A DNA stretch of 64,000 nucleotides from Callorhinchus milii (lineage: Eukaryota), in the NCBI RefSeq assembly GCF_018977255.1, contig NW_024704745.1, positions 39,432,001 through 39,496,000 on the forward strand. The letters are read 5' to 3'. Under the pieces are notes generated by a model. It had not been told where the DNA came from. It did no database searches and saw only the letters and a program-made list of their open reading frames with translations. Every line of letters begins with the position of its first letter. Within the stretch, counting starts at the first letter, position 1. The position numbers were made by a program, and so were the translations under genes. This document shows positions 1 through 13,405 of the stretch, one piece after another.

Positions 1-373
1 TACATTTATCTTCAAATATCCTTGTCCCACAATATCCTAGGCACCTTCTTTGAAAGTACACCGGAGTCCCAAGGTTGTGAGTATGGGTGTTAGTTGGCAA
101 TGTATGTGTTTAGTTGATAGATGAACAGGAGTGAACACTGACGAATTAGAAATTGCAATGTCAGTGCTGTGAAAGCGCTGCAAAATTATGGAGCCCCCAA
201 AAAAAACCCTCGCAGGTGACTGCCTGGAAAGTTAAGTTTACGTGCTTCGATTAAAATACTTTAGGTGCCTGGTGCATTTCAGCCAAGATCAAATCATTCA
301 CTGTGGGATTTGGCCTACGCTCTTGCTCTTGGTGTTCAGGAAAGTCAGTGTGGAGTCACAAGAGAGGGTTTCA

Positions 374-381
374 GTGTGTGT

Positions 382-412
<31 letters not shown>

Positions 413-855
413 TGTGGGGTGATTTTTTTTAACAAAATCTGTGCTCTCCAGTAGAACCATATTGATAGAATTTAAAAAAACCCAAAGCTGAGCAAGAGAT
501 TGGCTTTAAAGAGGTCTGTTTTGTTGCACACATTTTTTTTACTCTTGGCACATGTTGAATATTCTCTCTCTCTCTCTCTCTCTTCCACCACCACCTCCTC
601 CTCTCTCTCTGTGTGTGTGTGTGTTTCACTCACTCACTCACTCACTCACACTGTAATGAATTTGAGACCAGGACCAATGAGCAGAGACCGGATGCAATAT
701 ATCCTCTGGGACAACAAATGCTCTATTCGATCCTATGCAGATGACGCCATTTACCCATCGGCTGCCTCCGGAAAACCTCACGGCAGCTCTCAGGCAAATC
801 TGCTGCTCTCTCTCTCTCTCTCTCTCTCTGACACACACACACACACAACACAACA
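374..855. repeat. Microsatellite cluster: (GT)n+poly-G, (CT)n, (CACT)n, (CT)n(CA)n
   Basis: Directly visible simple repeats at ~374-412, 563-650 and 806-860. Confidence 0.9.
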
Positions 856-1490
856 CACAACATCGATCGCAAAACTTCCCGTCTGCTGGAAAGGATCGAA
901 GGGGGTCCCCGGCGGAGCCACAGCGCTGCACAGAGCCACTGAAGGAGCTTTAGTTTGTGAATGAAATTAAAGCCTCGGTTTCCTTCTGAAAAGTTGCAAC
1001 AATTGACAATTTTCTCCCTCCCCCCCCCAACCCCCCACCCACCCCCCCCCACACCCTCTCCCCACTCCCCACTCCCCTCCCAAGAGTAGAGCGAGAGAGA
1101 GAGCGAGAGAGTGTGTGTGAGAGAGGGAAGGAGAGAGGGAGAGAGACTCCGCTCCTCGTGTCTGTATCCGTCGGTTTCATTCAGAAAAAAAAAGGGGGAT
1201 TTTATTTTTTTTTTGCAAAGAATCGTCGCAGTTGTGAGACTGTCTCGGGGGGTCCGGGGGTCGGGGGTCGGGGTGAGCGGCGATCGGACAGGTCTCTCCC
1301 ACCGGATGGTTTTGCGGAGTGAGTGCCCGGGACTGTACTGAACTGAACTGAACTGAACTGGACTGACCTTCGCTGGAGTTTGGATCGACGTGTTTTACTA
1401 TCCGGAGCGTTGGTCTTTGATCCCCGAGAGAGAGAGAGAGAGAGAGAGGGGGGAGAGGGGTCGGTGGAGCAGCGCGACCCACGGTGAGCA
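660..1490 (+). promoter_or_regulatory. spry2: CpG-rich spry2 promoter / first non-coding exon region
   Basis: High CpG density. CCAAT 674-678, ETS-type ACCGGATG 687-694 and 1301-1308, CCGGAAA 768-774, CRE-like TGACGCCA 742-749, Capicua octamers 958-965 (+) and 1176-1183 (-). Candidate donors GTGAGT 1319 and GTGAGC 1484. Confidence 0.65.
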
Positions 1491-1798
1491 ACACCCCCCA
1501 ACCCCCCCCCAACCCCCCACCAACCCCCCAACCCCCCCCCCAACCCCCCAACCCCCCACCCCCCCCCAACCCCCCACCAACCCCCAACCCCCCACCAACC
1601 CCCAACCCCCCCCCCAACCCCCCACCAACCCCCCAACCCCCACCAACCCCCCACCAACCCCCCCCCAACCCCCCACCAACCCCCAACCCCCCCACCAACC
1701 CCCCACCAACCCCCCACCAACCCCCACCAACCCCCAACCCCCCCCAACCCCCCACCAACCCCCCACCAACCCCCAACCCCCCCCCAACCCCCCACCAA
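1491..1798. repeat. C/A-rich low-complexity satellite (CCCCCCAA / CCCCCACCAA units)
   Basis: About 300 bp composed only of C runs separated by A or AA. Confidence 0.95.
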
Positions 1799-2074
1799 CT
1801 CTGAGAAACTCTCTAACCTGCAAACGGGAGAGGAGAGGAGAGGCGATCAAAAACCAGGCACTGCTGCGGATGCTCGGCACACACCGGCTGAGATCTGCAG
1901 AGGGTTTTCTTCGCCCCGAGAGCCCCGATGCCAATCTCGTCGGAAACTTCAGCGCCTCGTCCTCAACACGGACCCGAGTGTCAGGAACCGTGTGAGTTTG
2001 CAGAGCGGCTCTCTCCAAGACTGTAAAACGTTAACATCCCATCAGCTGGGGATGGGTTTGTGCGGAGTCCAGTC

Positions 2075-3330
2075 CCAGCTCCTGCTCCCCATCCCCACCT
2101 CCTGCTCCCCATCCCCACCCCCAGCTCCTGCTCCCCATCCCCACCCCCAGCTCCTGCTCCCCATCCCCACCCCCAGCTCCTGCTCCCCATCCCCACCCCC
2201 AGCTCCTGCTCCCCATCCCCACCCCCAGCTCCTGCTCCCCATCCCCACCCCCAGCTCCTGCTCCCCATCCCCACCCCAGCTCCTGCTCCCCATCCCCACC
2301 CCCAGCTCCTGCTCCCCATCCCCACCCCCAGCTCCTGCTCCCCATCCCCACCCCCAGCTCCTGCTCCCCATCCCCACCCCCAGCTCCTGCTCCCCATCCC
2401 CACCCCCAGCTCCTGCTCCCCATCCCCACCCCCAGCTCCTGCTCCCCATCCCCACCCCCAGCTCCTGCTCCCCATCCCCACCCCCCAGCTCCTGCTCCCC
2501 ATCCCCACCCCAGCTCCTGCTCCCCATCCCCACCCCCAGCTCCTGCTCCCCATCCCCACCCCCAGCTCCTGCTCCCCATCCCCACCCCCAGCTCCTGCTC
2601 CCCATCCCCACCCCCAGCTCCTGCTCCCCATCCCCACCCCCCCCCCCCCCCCAGCTCCTGCTCCCCATCCCCACCCCCAGCTCCTGCTCCCCATCCCCAC
2701 CCCCAGCTCCTGCTCCCCATCCCCACCCCCAGCTCCTGCTCCCCATCCCCACCCCCAGCTCCTGCTCCCCATCCCCACCCCCAGCTCCTGCTCCCCCCCC
2801 CCCCCCCCCCCCTCCCCACCCCAGCTCCTGCTCCCCATCCCCACCCCCAGCTCCTGCTCCCCATCCCCACCCCAGCTCCTGCTCCCCACCCCCAGCTCCT
2901 GCTCCCCATCCCCACCTCCTGCTCCCCATCCTCAGCTCTTGCTCCCCATCCCCAGCTCCCCATCCCCATCCCCAGCTCCCCATCCCCAGCTCCCCATCCC
3001 CAGCTCCCCATCCCCAGCTCCCCACCCCAGCTCCCCCCCATCCCCAGCTCCCCATCCCCAGCTCCCCACCCCAGCTCCCCACCCCCAGCTCCCCACCCCC
3101 AGCTCCTGCTCCCCACCCCAGCTCCTGCTCCCCATCCCCAGCTCCTGCTCCCCATCCCCATCCCCTGCTCCCCATCCCCAGCTCCTGCTCCCCATCCCCA
3201 GCTCCAGCTCCCCACCCCCAGCTCCTGCTCCCCACCCCCAGCTCCTGCTCCCCATCCCCAGCCCCAGCCCCCCATCCCCAGCCCCCCATCCCCTGCTCCC
3301 CACCCCCAGCTCCTGCTCCCCATCCCCAGT
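2075..3330. repeat. Minisatellite, 26-bp unit AGCTCCTGCTCCCCATCCCCACCCCC, decaying into 14- and 20-bp variants
   Basis: Near-perfect 26-bp periodicity over ~2100-2880, then AGCTCCCCATCCCC and AGCTCCTGCTCCCCATCCCC units. Confidence 0.97.
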
Positions 3331-3477
3331 TCCGCGTCATTGGGACTGGATGGTCTCAGGGGCAGGAGAGCCGGGGCGGTGGGGTGGGGGGTGGGGGCTG
3401 TGTTGGGAAGTGGTGGTGGTGGTTGAGGGGTTTTGTTAAGTTTCAAAACATTGCAGTGGCGTTTTTTTCTTTACAAG

Positions 3478-3626
3478 GTTATATTTCAGCCGGGGACAGG
3501 AGGCACACTTGCCACCAGAGCAGGTTTTTAAAGACTTGGCAGATTCTGCTGTTGCAACGAGTTAGTTAATCAGTCAGAGAGGGAGAGGGAGATCACAGGG
3601 CAATAAACAGTTTGTGAAATTAACAA
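3478..3626 (+). other. Candidate internal or alternative non-coding 5'UTR exon of spry2
   Basis: Flanked by ttttttctttacaAG (acceptor 3476-3477) and GTGAGT (donor 3627-3632). The sequence is unique and non-repetitive. Confidence 0.35.
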
Positions 3627-6440
3627 GTGAGTTGCACATTAACATCCACCAAAAAGCACTGCATGTTTTTTTTTGTTGAAAAAACAATCGGGAATTCCCG
3701 ACCGGATCCGATTGGTATCCAGACCAGTCTGCATATTTGTATTTATTTATTTGCATTGATTGATTTGTTAATTTATTGCGTTGCACGAATTCGCAATGGC
3801 GTTTTGATTGAGAGATCAAACGCGATCGCTCTCGTGTTTGGAACGGGTTTCACGTTCAGTTCGCGTGAAAAACGAAGGCAGTGCGAAATAAATCTGGTTT
3901 GGGAAGCAGTTGTGTGAAGTGCGGTGCTGTGGGGATTCTCAGGAGGGAGAGAGGGAGAGAGGGAGGGAGGGAGGGAGTGAGGATCACCCTCTCCTCCCCT
4001 CCTGGTTTGCTGGTAAACTTAGAAAGAGAGAAGAACACTTAAAAAGTTTCTCTTAAAAGTTTCCATGGTGGGGTTTGGGGCTGGCAACTCGCACCCCCTC
4101 CTCCCTCCCCTTCACCGGCTGCATGTTTGCCAAAGGAGTGGGTCTGTGTTAACTTTCCACGTGTTTGGGATATTTATTTGGAAGAGGGGAAGGCAGGGCA
4201 GGTCCTCACTCACTCACTCACTCACACACACACACAGTCACTCACTCACAGTGTTTGAGGTTTGCAGAACTTCCTCCCAGATCAGAAGTGAAGTTGGAGA
4301 TGGGTTGGAGACCAGAGGTGGATCCTGATCCCATCCCCAGCCTCTCCCTCTCTCTCTGCTGGTGACATGTGGAAGTTGTCACGATCCTCTTTCACGGTGT
4401 ATTTAAAAACCTCACCGACAATATACACATTGCACTCAGTTTGCCTTTGACGGCAGATTTGATGAAGAAGACGAGAGAGTTGAGTTTGCTGAGGATGTGT
4501 TGGGGAGAGGAGGGGAGGGGAGGGGAGTGGGGGGTTAGTTTTCCAATGGTCCCCAAGTTAAGTATCAAGTCTTTGGTTGTTCTCCTCTTTTAACACAAGG
4601 AATGATTGAGAAAACCAAGGCTCTGGAATATCTTCTCACCAGAGACACTGAAAATTCACCCCAGTGGCATTTCTGGAGTTGTTTGGGTAATTTGTAATAG
4701 GAAATTCTCTGAAGACCAACGTGATCTGTGTGCAAATTTTACACACTGTGTGCAGTAGGTGGCCAGATATTTCAGTCGTTCATCCCCCTTGTATTTGTGA
4801 GACTCTCATTAACATGATCAACAGCATTGTTTAGTCGTGTATTAGTTCTTTAGGTCATTTGACCGTTGTGTTGCTGTTTTTATTTACTTTTTAAATTTAC
4901 TTTTTTTTCACTATTCTCTCCCTAACGTGTTTTAGTCTCCAGCCCTTTTAGGGTTCAAATCTTACTTTGCTTTTATGCATTAAGTTTTTGAGTGGCGAAA
5001 GAACTCAGCCAGAACTTTTTTTTGGACAAAATCGAACAGTGAATTGTGAACCATTTAACGTACAATATTAGTGTATTGTGCATTGAAACCAAGAAAAACA
5101 CTGGATTTATTGCTGCAAAAGAAGCGGCGAGAGGTGCTGCTTTTGAAAACAATAATATTTACCTCGGAAGGCGTAATTTCCTTTGCATTTGGTCTTTGAT
5201 TCACTTAATGATTAACGGTTAAATGAAACGTTTCTTTTCATTTCCCCCTGAATGCTGCCGTGCTTTTGCCATACTGTTGTCCTTCACCTTGCCGTTGCTA
5301 GTGACTAGGTAGGTAGGAAGGTAGGTAGGTCGGTGTGCATACCTGCAGTAGCCAACAACACCCAAAGGGCAGCAGCGCCTTTCTACAGATGCTACATAGA
5401 CCCACTTCCCACAAAATAACGTAGGGGAGAGGCCTGCAGGGGCATTGCTGAAGTCAGTAGTGAGGCAAAGGGTAGTGGCCAGTGAACATTTGTGAGGTCA
5501 GATCTTAGCATTTCAAGCATTCTGGCTGTTCTGCAGAGAAGATAGTGGGAGATTTGGTGATTTGATTAAATTACTACAGTAGTCACAAAAGCTCACCTGA
5601 AGGAACATAGATGTATCCTATCAATATCAGGAAGTAATTGGATATGACCACCTCGACCACTCTCTGCCCCACTGTAAAATGCATTGTCTTTGCATTAAAG
5701 ACGTCTTCCTCATGTTGAAACTTCTCCAAACTGCAGTTTATACTTTGTTGGAACTATCTATCATGATTCATCTTGTGTTTGTGTGATACTGTCAAGTTGC
5801 TGCTGTTCAGTTATGTTTCTAATTAGCTCTGCTAGAGTACCAAACCCTGCACACGGGGTTTATATGAAGCATGACTAATGATATGGTCAAATTAAATGTT
5901 CCTTTCAGAGTTGAAGGCCAAGCTGCTCTCCTATGGCAGACCTTCAGATTGAGAATACTCCCATTAATATGTTTTCTGTCAGCACCTCTATATCCAATTG
6001 TGGGAATGTTGCTTCGGGACAAATGTACAAGACTTGCAAAGTTTATAGTTTTAATTGTGCCAGGTTATATTTGGGCACATAATATATATCTTTATTGAAC
6101 TGACCAATCAAAACTTTTAGCTTGACATTTGTAGACTTACAGATTGAAAGCCTATTCCGTTTGCCTTTTCTCTGCCTTCAGTCTGATTGTCAAAAATGTA
6201 TAAACAGCTTAGTTCCAGGAAATCAACAGTGCTTGTTCAAGGGAGGGGGGCTGGGGGGCGTGAACGAATCATAAACATTGCTGAAGTTGCTGAAGGCAAA
6301 ATATACAAATGTCAGAACACGTCCAGCCTTATGCGTTTACTTGTATTGCACAAAAGGGTGAAAATTCCTAGCTTATTATTTAAAGATAGCTTGTAAATTA
6401 AGAGGAAACTATAGCATGTTTACTATGTACAACTCAAGCT

Positions 6441-6471
6441 GAATTGTTTTCTTTTTTGTTGTGTTTTACAG
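6441..6471 (+). other. spry2: Splice acceptor of the spry2 coding exon (exon starts 6472)
   Basis: Polypyrimidine tract ttttcttttttgttgtgttttacAG followed by gatttcagatgtgttctaagcct, matching the start of the vertebrate SPRY2 coding exon as recalled. Confidence 0.9.
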
Positions 6472-6479
6472 GATTTCAG

Positions 6480-6581
6480 ATGTGTTCTAAGCCTACTGGA
6501 GTGATCACTCTTCAGTGTACAGATGGATACGCGAACTCAAAATGGCAGCGGTTCTCCAGCCCTGCTACAGTTGCTGCGTGA
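6480..6581 (+). CDS. Overlapping upstream ORF (33 aa, [33 protein letters not shown]), out of frame with spry2
   Basis: ATG at 6480 is 43 nt upstream of the main ATG and is open until TGA at 6579-6581 inside the CDS. Translation is not demonstrated. Confidence 0.55.
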
Positions 6582-7500
6582 CAGTGGAAGGCAACACGTG
6601 GAACCTGACCCCAGGGATGTACAGCCACAGCAGGTTCAAGTGTTGTCGCTCGATCAGATCCGAATTATAAGAGCCACTAATGAATACACAGAGGGACCTA
6701 CTGTTGCTCCAAGGCCCGGGAATAAGTCTGTGTACCGACCACTTTCCCAGCACAAAAATGAGAGGATGTCTGGATTAAGTAATGACCAAGAGCACCAGCG
6801 GTTTAACCACCGTAGTCAGCACCACCATCATCATCATCACACGCATTCTTCTTTCAGGCTGCCTTTGACTCGGTCAACTAGCACTGTAAGTGCCGGCTCT
6901 CGGAGTAGCACAAGGACAAGTACAAGCAGTACTGCCTCTGACCAGAGGCTTCTGGGACCTTCATCCTCACCATCCAGCCATCTTTCGGATCGAATAATCA
7001 GGGTACAGCCTAAATCGGAATTTAAATCCGACAAACTGAAACCTCTGGAGAAAGAAGAGTTGGGAAAGCACATCTACCGATGTGAAGACTGTGGAAAGTG
7101 CAAGTGCGAGGAATGCACTTATCCAAGGACTCTACCTTCCTGCTGGCTCTGCGACAAGCGGTGCCTCTGTTCAGCGCAGAATGCAGTGGAATATGGGACC
7201 TGCGTTTGCTTTGTGAAAGGCGTCTTTTACCACTGCTCAAACTATGACGATGAGGACAACTGCACAGATAATCCGTGCTCCTGCAGCCAGTCACACTGCT
7301 GTGCCCGGTGGTCAGCCATGGGCCTCATGTCCCTCATTCTGCCATGCCTGTGGTGTTACCTGCCTGCCAAGGGATGCCTTAAATTGTGCCAGCAGTGCTA
7401 TGATAGGATTAACCGTCCTGGGTGCCAGTGCAAAAATTCAAACACAGTTTGCTGCAAGGTTCCCAGCTTACCTCCTCGGAACCTTGAGAAGCCCTCCTAG
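6523..7500 (+). CDS. spry2: Protein sprouty homolog 2 (RTK/FGF-ERK feedback inhibitor), 325 aa, single coding exon
   Basis: ORF has the N-terminal LSLDQIR..NEYTEGP c-Cbl-binding motif (Tyr55), a serine-rich region ([11 protein letters not shown]), the cysteine-rich SPR domain (CEDCGKCKC...[12 protein letters not shown]...[12 protein letters not shown]) and the Spry2-specific C-terminal PxxPxR (PSLPPR). It is colinear with human SPRY2 as I recall it. Confidence 0.98.
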
Positions 7501-8490
7501 CTGAGGAGAAGGGAATTACTCTTTAAATGCTGTTGCTTGACACTTCTATTCTGTACACTTGTAGTATGAGGAGGAGAAACGCATTTACAATACTAGCACT
7601 GAGTACAATGCAGGATGCCTTTCATCAGACCACCTTAATTGATGTAAATTAATGAATCAACAATCATTAAGATGGTCTTGTGTGTCTTTTTTAAAAAAAA
7701 TCAATTTAAAAAGGTATCTCCCGTTGGGCTTGGTCTTGTCTTCTTGTTGACGAGCATGAGTGCCCCTATCTCTTTTTGTTGTGTATAACATTAGCGCTGC
7801 AGTTATCCAGAGTTGTGGTTTGCAGTGATGTTGCTGTTGATCCTGTTTTCTCCGCCTCTATTAACTGGTATGCAAGAGGATGGAAAACATCTGATCAGGG
7901 AGATCAAAACAGGATACACAATGCCCATTGTTTTTGAAACCGCATAAGCTACAGGTAACTCGTCAACACTCCTGGTCATTCTGTATTGTATGTGAATAGT
8001 TCTTGCAAAGTATGTAAATTAGCAAATTGCTCTTTTTTTGCTGCCAGAGTTAATTTGTTATATTTTTGTATATACAATAATATTAAGACTGTGAAAATGG
8101 TGCCAGATTAATGGCAGATTTACAAAATATCATACTAATATGTTGTACATTCAGACAAATGTGAATCAAGTTGATCAATATGTTTAGGCTATATTTCTCC
8201 TTATAAAATTTACCATTACATGTCTGATACCCCCTGACATCATGTATATTGTACAGTTACCATAAATTCAGTCTTTATTTTCTAATTTTTCAACATATTG
8301 TTTAGTGTAAAGAATATTTATTTGAAGGTTTATTATTTTATAAAATATTTATTTTAAAAGGCATCTTACAAAATTCACCCTTTTTAAAAAAAATTGGAAC
8401 ATCGTAGTTGCTGAAAACAAGGGTGACAAATAGGATGCGTATGTTCACTATAAAATAGAAAATATATTAACGTTTTGAAATCAAACCGTG
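7501..8490 (+). other. spry2: spry2 3'UTR
   Basis: AU-rich and TE-free. Contains miR-21 (7944-7951), miR-27 (8088-8095) and miR-23 (8158-8165) 8mer sites and a Pumilio element (8067-8074). Variant poly(A) signals at 8449-8466 are followed by a GU/U-rich tract at 8488-8516. A canonical AATAAA also occurs at 8563-8568. Confidence 0.75.
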
Positions 8491-8827: not shown

Positions 8828-9134
8828 GAGTCCTGTGGCTCAGTGGATAGAGCACTCCCCTTGCAAGCGAGAAACCTGGGTTCGATTCCTTGCAGAGCGA
8901 AACCTTGGGCAAGTTTCCTTACTCTACATGCCTGGTAATAATCCCTCAAGAAAAATAAATAATAATTTGGTCACTTCAATCCATGACTGTTTGTGCGACA
9001 CTGCTGTGCCAATTGGCTGCCGGGTTTTTCCCACCAATATACAGTCAATTCACTTTATGGTACTTTCTGTAAAGCTCTTTGAAACGTCTAGAAGATGTAA
9101 AAAGCGCTATATCAAATGTAAGGATTATTATTAT
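8828..9134 (+). mobile_element. tRNA-Ala-headed SINE (chimaera SINE2-1_CM-like), full length
   Basis: A-box gtggctcagtgg, anticodon-like ttgcaa, B-box ggttcgattcc, L2-type 3' tail ending (TTA)n. Homologous to copies at 13101 and 21891. Confidence 0.9.
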
Positions 9135-13100: not shown

Positions 13101-13405
13101 GGAGTCCTGTAGCTCAGTGGTTAGAGCACTCGCTTTGCAAGCGAGAGACCTGAGTTCAATTCCAGGCAGGGCGAAACCTTGGCCAAGTTTCCTTACTCCA
13201 CACGCCTAATAATAATCCCTCCAAGATAAAACAATAATAAATTGGTCATTTTCAATCTACGACTGTTTGTGGGACATTGCTGTGCGCAATTGGCTGCCGC
13301 GTTCGCCAACAAATATACAGTCAATTCACTTTACATTGTGTTCTGTGAAGCGCTTTTGGACGTCCTCCCGATGTGAAATGCAAGGATTATTATTATTATT
13401 ATTAT
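13101..13405 (+). mobile_element. tRNA-Ala-headed SINE, full length, low divergence
   Basis: ggagtcctgtagctcagtggttagagcactcgctttgcaagcgagagacctgagttcaattcc head and tail ending (TTA)n. Confidence 0.93.

Follow-up and report, generated by a model that had tools for sequence, protein, structure and literature searches.

The 64,000-nucleotide stretch of Callorhinchus milii DNA analysed here (the window) carries spry2, the product of which shares 87% identity with Spry2 of rays and sharks. Over the Spry2 start codon runs a second, 33-codon frame, which opens at the ATG at 6480-6482 and closes at the TGA at 6579-6581; our translation agrees with that given in an earlier note on this DNA. The upstream ATG (uATG) lies 43 nt before the main ATG, out of frame with it, and the overlapping upstream ORF (uoORF) shares 59 nt with the coding sequence, its stop ending 59 nt past the A of the main ATG. 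The segment that precedes the Spry2 start also contains a TGA in the main frame (6502-6504). The features are collected in Table 1. Apart from these, a frame of 42 codons (6542-6670) begins at an ATG in a strong context, 19 nt past the main start, and could catch ribosomes that leak past the main ATG, and the Spry2 protein has a histidine run (encoded at 6820-6843). Elsewhere in the window, tRNA-Ala-like sequences at 8829-8900 and 13104-13173 are probably the heads of tRNA-derived SINEs, not tRNA genes.

Table 1. Features of the spry2 leader and start region (positions in the window).
Feature	Positions	Strand	Remarks
11-codon uORF in exon 1	1306..1341	+	ends 193 nt before main ATG in donor-1 leader; presumably transcribed
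Upstream exon 3' end, donor 1 (GT at 1484)	1453..1483	+	contig loose ends X3, X4, X7, matched by eye
Second upstream exon 3' end, donor 2 (GT at 1992)	1832..1991	+	160-letter loose end in X3; exon at least this long
Spliced 46-codon uORF, donor-2 leader	1870..6490 (1870-1991 + 6472-6490)	+	covers ATG 6480; stops 32 nt before main ATG
Acceptor AG of the joints in transcript contigs	6470..6471	+	
Untranslated 51-nt start of coding exon	6472..6522	+	homologous to 55-nt (spry1) and 47-nt (spry3) segments
33-codon uoORF, not in frame with Spry2	6480..6581	+	weak start context (-3 C, +4 U); human counterpart catalogued
Predicted 8-bp hairpin	6494..6517	+	starts 14 nt past A of uATG
GATCRC motif, common to spry1, spry2 and spry3 segments	6503..6508	+	also in L002, L003, L005
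Sprouty2 CDS, 325 aa, single coding exon	6523..7500	+	start context -3 C, +4 G

Transcript contigs from four runs of three studies were aligned to positions 3400-7700. The uATG had been placed 8 nt into the coding exon, and a deep contig beginning at 6471/6472 in all four runs confirms this position. In three of the runs, loose ends of the contigs match, by eye, an upstream exon that ends at 1483 (X3, X4 and X7) or at 1991 (X3). Although none of the runs is recorded as RNA, the spliced joints indicate that RNA is what they come from, and since the contigs of three of the four runs splice exon 1 to 6472, the uATG is part of the mRNA. The frame is thus opened by an AUG in the leader of the mature mRNA, is out of frame with the main ORF and has its stop downstream of the main start. 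A further AG at 6514-6516, 7 nt upstream of the main ATG, is a possible alternative acceptor that would drop the uATG. No joint at the other AG sites (6480 or 6516) was present in the contigs of the four runs, and contigs drop rare forms.

The use of two exon-1 donors (1483 and 1991) with the same acceptor generates leaders with different sets of uORFs. Exon 1 contains upstream ATGs at 961 (42 aa) and 1306 (11 aa), which are absent from the earlier note; the leader spliced from 1991 adds ATGs at 1870 (46 aa) and 1928 (21 aa, with a stop created by the junction), and more upstream ATGs would be included at 718-741 if that part is transcribed. C-rich tandem arrays lie between and after the exon-1 donors, at 1493-1799 (period about 11-29) and 2074-3333 (period 26). 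No Rfam family was found in the leader. Four runs from 'organism B', at 80% likeness, yielded pieces of the cysteine-rich domain only, with nothing at the uATG.

Both ATGs had been described as sharing the same suboptimal context. The CAG at -3 to -1 is indeed common to the two, but position +4 differs (U versus G), so that the contexts are unequal: cagATGT, at the uATG, is weak and cagATGG, at the main ATG, is intermediate. An overlapping out-of-frame ATG arose in 32% of 5000 shuffles of the 51-nt spry2 segment and in 26-32% when each Sprouty gene was treated in the same way (5000 shuffles each), values that cannot be multiplied across paralogues because the copies are homologous. For a single gene, an ATG fell at exon positions 7-11 in 6-9% of the shuffles. 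With a chance of ∼30%, an overlapping ATG in one gene is unremarkable, and the case therefore rests on conservation. The stop of the uoORF is created by an Arg(CGT)-Asp pair of the main frame. Upon synonymous shuffling, the first stop fell at the observed place with a probability of 0.05-0.13 for spry2 and 0.05-0.33 for spry1; that chimaera and human have this position in common for both genes is suggestive, to the extent that synonymous sites are saturated, which they need not be.

Upstream AUGs enhanced by a downstream hairpin, located about 14 nt after the uAUG, form a Kozak-type class. The hairpin predicted at 6494..6517 fits this distance, but its stability is no better than that of shuffled sequences (z of 0.5, -0.5 and -0.1) and it is absent from the paralogues, and we discarded it as an enhancer of the uATG. 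Apparent covariation around the GATC (T..A versus C..G) was also rejected as a signal of structure, since CpG decay would give the same pattern.

The earlier note had proposed a human counterpart of this frame, and the published record bears it out. SPRY2 c13riboseqorf40 is entered by Sandmann et al. (2023, PMC10032668; Table S1), from the GENCODE Ribo-seq ORF set, as a uoORF of 102 nt and 33 aa that starts with MCSKP; the ORF is of the same gene and has the length, the first five residues and the overlap geometry of the chimaera frame. It is flagged 'conserved', with 0 MS studies and a PhyloCSF (mammals) of -447, a value that includes the CDS-overlapping part (PMC10032668). The catalogue row describes conservation of the peptide across mammals, whereas cartilaginous fish, a link between paralogues and function are not among its contents. 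The same table lists SPRY1 c4riboseqorf89, a uoORF of 28 aa labelled 'primatomorpha - young' with 1 MS study; the label derives from a peptide-similarity score, and ORF structure was assessed within primatomorpha only (PMC10032668). The Ribo-seq ORF catalogue contains 432 replicated uoORFs (preprint 10.1101/2021.06.10.447896), and, going by the naming of their ids, c13riboseqorf40 and c4riboseqorf89 would both be among the replicated ORFs (two or more studies). By eye, 17 of the 33 residues of the SPRY2 uoORF peptide are identical between chimaera and human, 9 of them within the first 14, and the spry1 uoORF of chimaera, also of 28 aa, is identical to its human counterpart at 14 of 28 residues. 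Ribosomes translate the human orthologue, according to the published Ribo-seq call, and the chimaera uoORF may be translated too. Some human Ribo-seq starts are not kept in chimaera: a second, internal SPRY2 ORF, which by its coordinates begins 115 nt past the main start, has AAG here (6638-6640). A search of the literature, made up mostly of open-access texts and exclusive of newer catalogue supplements, retrieved no report on a Sprouty uORF and no functional test of one (reporter or knock-in); the main text of Takahashi 2020 (PMC7530721) does not mention Sprouty.

Four Sprouty loci are present in this genome. The product of spry1 equals protein P0076 of C. milii, and the spry3 protein P0071 is matched exactly over 52 residues; the acceptors of spry1, spry3 and spry4 were predicted from sequence, not from reads. 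In spry1, a 28-aa frame opens with an ATG at position 9 of the exon (offset 47), and a second ATG lies at offset 25; in spry3, an ATG at exon position 10 (offset 38) opens a frame of 53 aa. No overlapping ATG was found in the 104 nt upstream segment of spry4. An overlapping ATG, out of frame and at exon position 9-10, is thus present in three of the four paralogues, with offsets of 43, 47 and 38 in spry2, spry1 and spry3, respectively. Despite the changes in length, the offset modulo 3 is 1 or 2, and in the DNA examined it is never in frame. In a bird-like SPRY1 contig (L005), ATGs occur at offsets 47, 43 and 25, and the first 11 letters of its exon equal those of the spry2 exon in the window, whereas a bird-like SPRY4 contig (L006) has no such ATG. 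One of the L005 ATGs is lost from spry1 of this genome, and the uoORF stop lies one codon later in L005. The spry1 ATG 25 nt before the main start (L003 and L005) opens an overlapping frame of 74-82 codons and is incompatible with mammal-type models. The human SPRY1 ORF agrees with the chimaera spry1 uoORF in exon-start position as well as in length; since the same structure is found in the chimaera and bird-like genes, its 'young' label understates the age of the ORF, which appears far older.

In a tree of 30 proteins, the root of which is not fixed, spry1 and spry4 were joined (97/92), and spry2 and spry3 were weakly joined (82/59), with a long invertebrate branch inside. Since the ATG is present in spry1, spry2 and spry3, one ancient origin seems likely, and the element is probably older than the earlier note held. 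The simplest history, and a likely one judging from these sequences, is that the uATG arose in a Sprouty gene prior to the duplications of the vertebrate lineage and later disappeared from spry4. What is new here is the counterpart ATG of spry1 and spry3 in this genome and its absence from spry4; the human SPRY2 element had already been catalogued. The uoORF peptides of the paralogues differ in frame, in length (28, 33 and 53 aa) and in sequence, which indicates that the start codon was kept and the peptide was not. This pattern fits the finding that, in general, uORF start codons are more conserved than uORF peptides (PMC7889888).

Identity between paralogues amounts to 30-37 of 51-54 aligned letters, flanks included. 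The uATG is invariant in four of four aligned spry1-3 segments, and this small set of sequences shows the same for the GATCRC block and for the CAG that precedes the main start. GATCRC lies 10-20 nt upstream of the main ATG, and in spry2 it falls inside a 12-nt palindrome (6499-6510). Since the whole segment is conserved and the GATCRC block, which holds no ATG, is just as invariant, the alignment does not isolate selection specific to the ATG. The segment could have been kept for another reason, as a splicing enhancer, an RNA-binding site, a structure or a DNA element, so that the ATG hitch-hikes and its translation is tolerated noise. The equal invariance of GATCRC and CAG favours this explanation, as does the position of the segment directly after a splice acceptor. 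Moreover, an overlapping ORF is found in about a quarter of human transcripts (PMC6089452), and the preprint 10.1101/2021.06.10.447896 cautions against hitch-hiking of this kind. However, the possible tandem acceptor formed by the CAG in front of the uATG reads CCG in this genome's copies of spry1 and spry3, which retain the ATG, and the corresponding joint at 6480 is missing from the contigs. Folding on a par with shuffled sequences and a leader without an Rfam family offer little to a structural element, and the substitutions that the main frame shows next to the ATG (Q/R before C, A/E after D) are of a type able to preserve it. We consider this explanation unlikely.

The extent of conservation was assessed in other animals. 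In two pangolin gene models (P0039 and P0144) the uORF frame, at an unchanged offset, is part of the translation; residue 4 is M there, where chimaera and human have K. The start codon is therefore found over long distances, in chimaera, human, the two pangolins, the paralogues spry1 and spry3 and the bird-like SPRY1. The uoORF had been proposed to be gnathostome-wide; at the DNA or uORF-peptide level this holds for chimaera, human and the two pangolins, and the teleost models are compatible with it. Among the proteins recognised (144 spry2, 94 spry1 and 33 spry3), 9, 20 and 13, respectively, carry an N-terminal extension of at least 16 residues. A kept ATG is compatible with 8 of the 9 extended spry2 models (all eight from teleosts), 20 of 20 for spry1 and 13 of 13 for spry3, in a sample that is biased to open main frames, includes isoforms of the same species and leaves codons unfixed. 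The only spry2 miss is a zebra-shark model (P0163), which fits a different acceptor, located 7 nt upstream of the main ATG. In the spry1 set, the second ATG is compatible in 19 of 20 models and the third in 10 of 20. The spry3 models of sharks and rays would place the ATG at offset 40, in a frame other than that of the 38 found here. An N-terminal extension in the main frame was rejected as a general feature, because spry1 and spry2 of this genome have a main-frame TGA in the segment. In the teleost spry2 models P0029, P0033, P0096, P0100 and P0118 the last residue of the segment before the start is N or K. This implies A at position -3 and, with it, a main start stronger than that of the chimaera.

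A metagenome scan yielded 34 loci, of which four are vertebrate-like and none is spry2; two of them, L005 and L006, cover the start region. Of four invertebrate sprouty loci, one (L011, 319-402) shows an overlapping frame opened by an out-of-frame ATG 44 nt ahead of its presumed start, which is within chance. Viral contigs contained 0 matches to a degenerate motif. A search with the 33-aa peptide returned 5 matches, all to multi-stretch proteins, the best being an unrelated repeat protein, and a 40-aa window used as query returned 1 candidate, which was no match.

These data bear on the proposal that the product is a micropeptide. The by-eye identity with the human peptide, the common length and stop, the 'conserved' flag and the single MS study of the SPRY1 uoORF are in its favour. 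Set against them are the strongly negative PhyloCSF and the lack of an MS match for the human SPRY2 uoORF, the divergence in frame, length and sequence between paralogous peptides, the change at residue 4 in pangolin, and searches that led to unrelated repeat proteins or to nothing. A conserved peptide is thus disfavoured, and a functional micropeptide is very improbable.

We consider it probable that the uoORF is a constant leaky-scanning damper of Spry2 output. In the spliced spry2 mRNA a share of the scanning ribosomes would initiate at ATG 6480 and enter the overlapping frame. With their stop 59 nt past the Spry2 start codon, these ribosomes would not be expected to make Spry2; going back to the main start is inefficient after termination inside the coding sequence. 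The weak context of the uATG would let most ribosomes pass, so that Spry2 output would be lowered partly and not fully. Selection would then act on the uATG and its out-of-frame overlap, not on the peptide. The leaky-scanning rheostat put forward earlier is thus in keeping with the conservation seen in the sequences, but the breadth then assigned to it, across gnathostomes, is only partly covered. In humans, overlapping ORFs are selected against, being observed in 24.5% of transcripts versus 49% expected (PMC6089452). The overlapping ORFs of STN1 in yeast and human lower the output of the gene, 10-fold in yeast, with the participation of nonsense-mediated decay (NMD) (Torrance and Lydall 2018, PMC6089452). 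As in STN1, an out-of-frame upstream ORF overlaps the start of a dose-sensitive gene. Repression was measured for STN1, whereas the Sprouty case is known from sequence and human Ribo-seq, and its ATG is positionally homologous across paralogues.

A constant damper has to be weighed against a regulated switch, which could respond to stress (by delayed reinitiation after the exon-1 uORF, as in ATF4), to start-codon stringency, or to the choice of first exon or acceptor. In the two-uORF switch of ATF4 a short upstream uORF is followed by an overlapping, out-of-frame one. The donor-1 leader of spry2 has the same order, with the short uORF at 1306 first and the overlapping one after it, and in the donor-2 leader a spliced uORF covers ATG 6480. 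The zebra-shark model also fits an acceptor that would drop the uATG. A weak start context should, in addition, be sensitive to the levels of eIF1 and eIF5. Unlike in ATF4, the context of the spry2 uATG is weak and the two ATGs lie just 43 nt apart, which leaves little room for delayed reinitiation; the joint at 6516 was not seen in the contigs. Spry2 is among 127 genes that are up in Upf3b-null olfactory neurons, which hints at an NMD link, yet it is absent from Table 1 of direct NMD targets in the same article, the criteria of which exclude overlapping ORFs (PMC7452722). Neither SPRY1 nor SPRY2 is named in the main texts of the literature searched for induction of the main ORF by eIF2-alpha phosphorylation. 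Taken together, a regulated switch is quite unlikely. A broader proposal joins the history to both modes of action: a uAUG already carried by the single Sprouty gene ahead of the vertebrate genome duplications, and retained out of frame since then by spry1, spry2 and spry3, would set the gain of FGF/ERK feedback and be switchable, with alternative first exons or the acceptor 7 nt before the main start removing or shielding the brake and start-codon stringency tuning it. As a whole, this is possible but doubtful.

FGF/RTK-ERK signalling is subject to feedback inhibition by Sprouty proteins, which act in a dose-sensitive way. Both gain and loss of Sprouty disturb the development of palate, tooth, ear and enteric nerves, and SPRY2 is lowered in several cancers. 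If the damping of Spry2 by leaky scanning is true, human variants at the uATG would be candidates for dosage effects, and if the brake is common to the three paralogues, one base edit or an antisense oligonucleotide directed at the uAUG should raise endogenous Sprouty. For the family, a uORF's start codon apparently predates the vertebrate gene duplications while the peptide that it opens has drifted.
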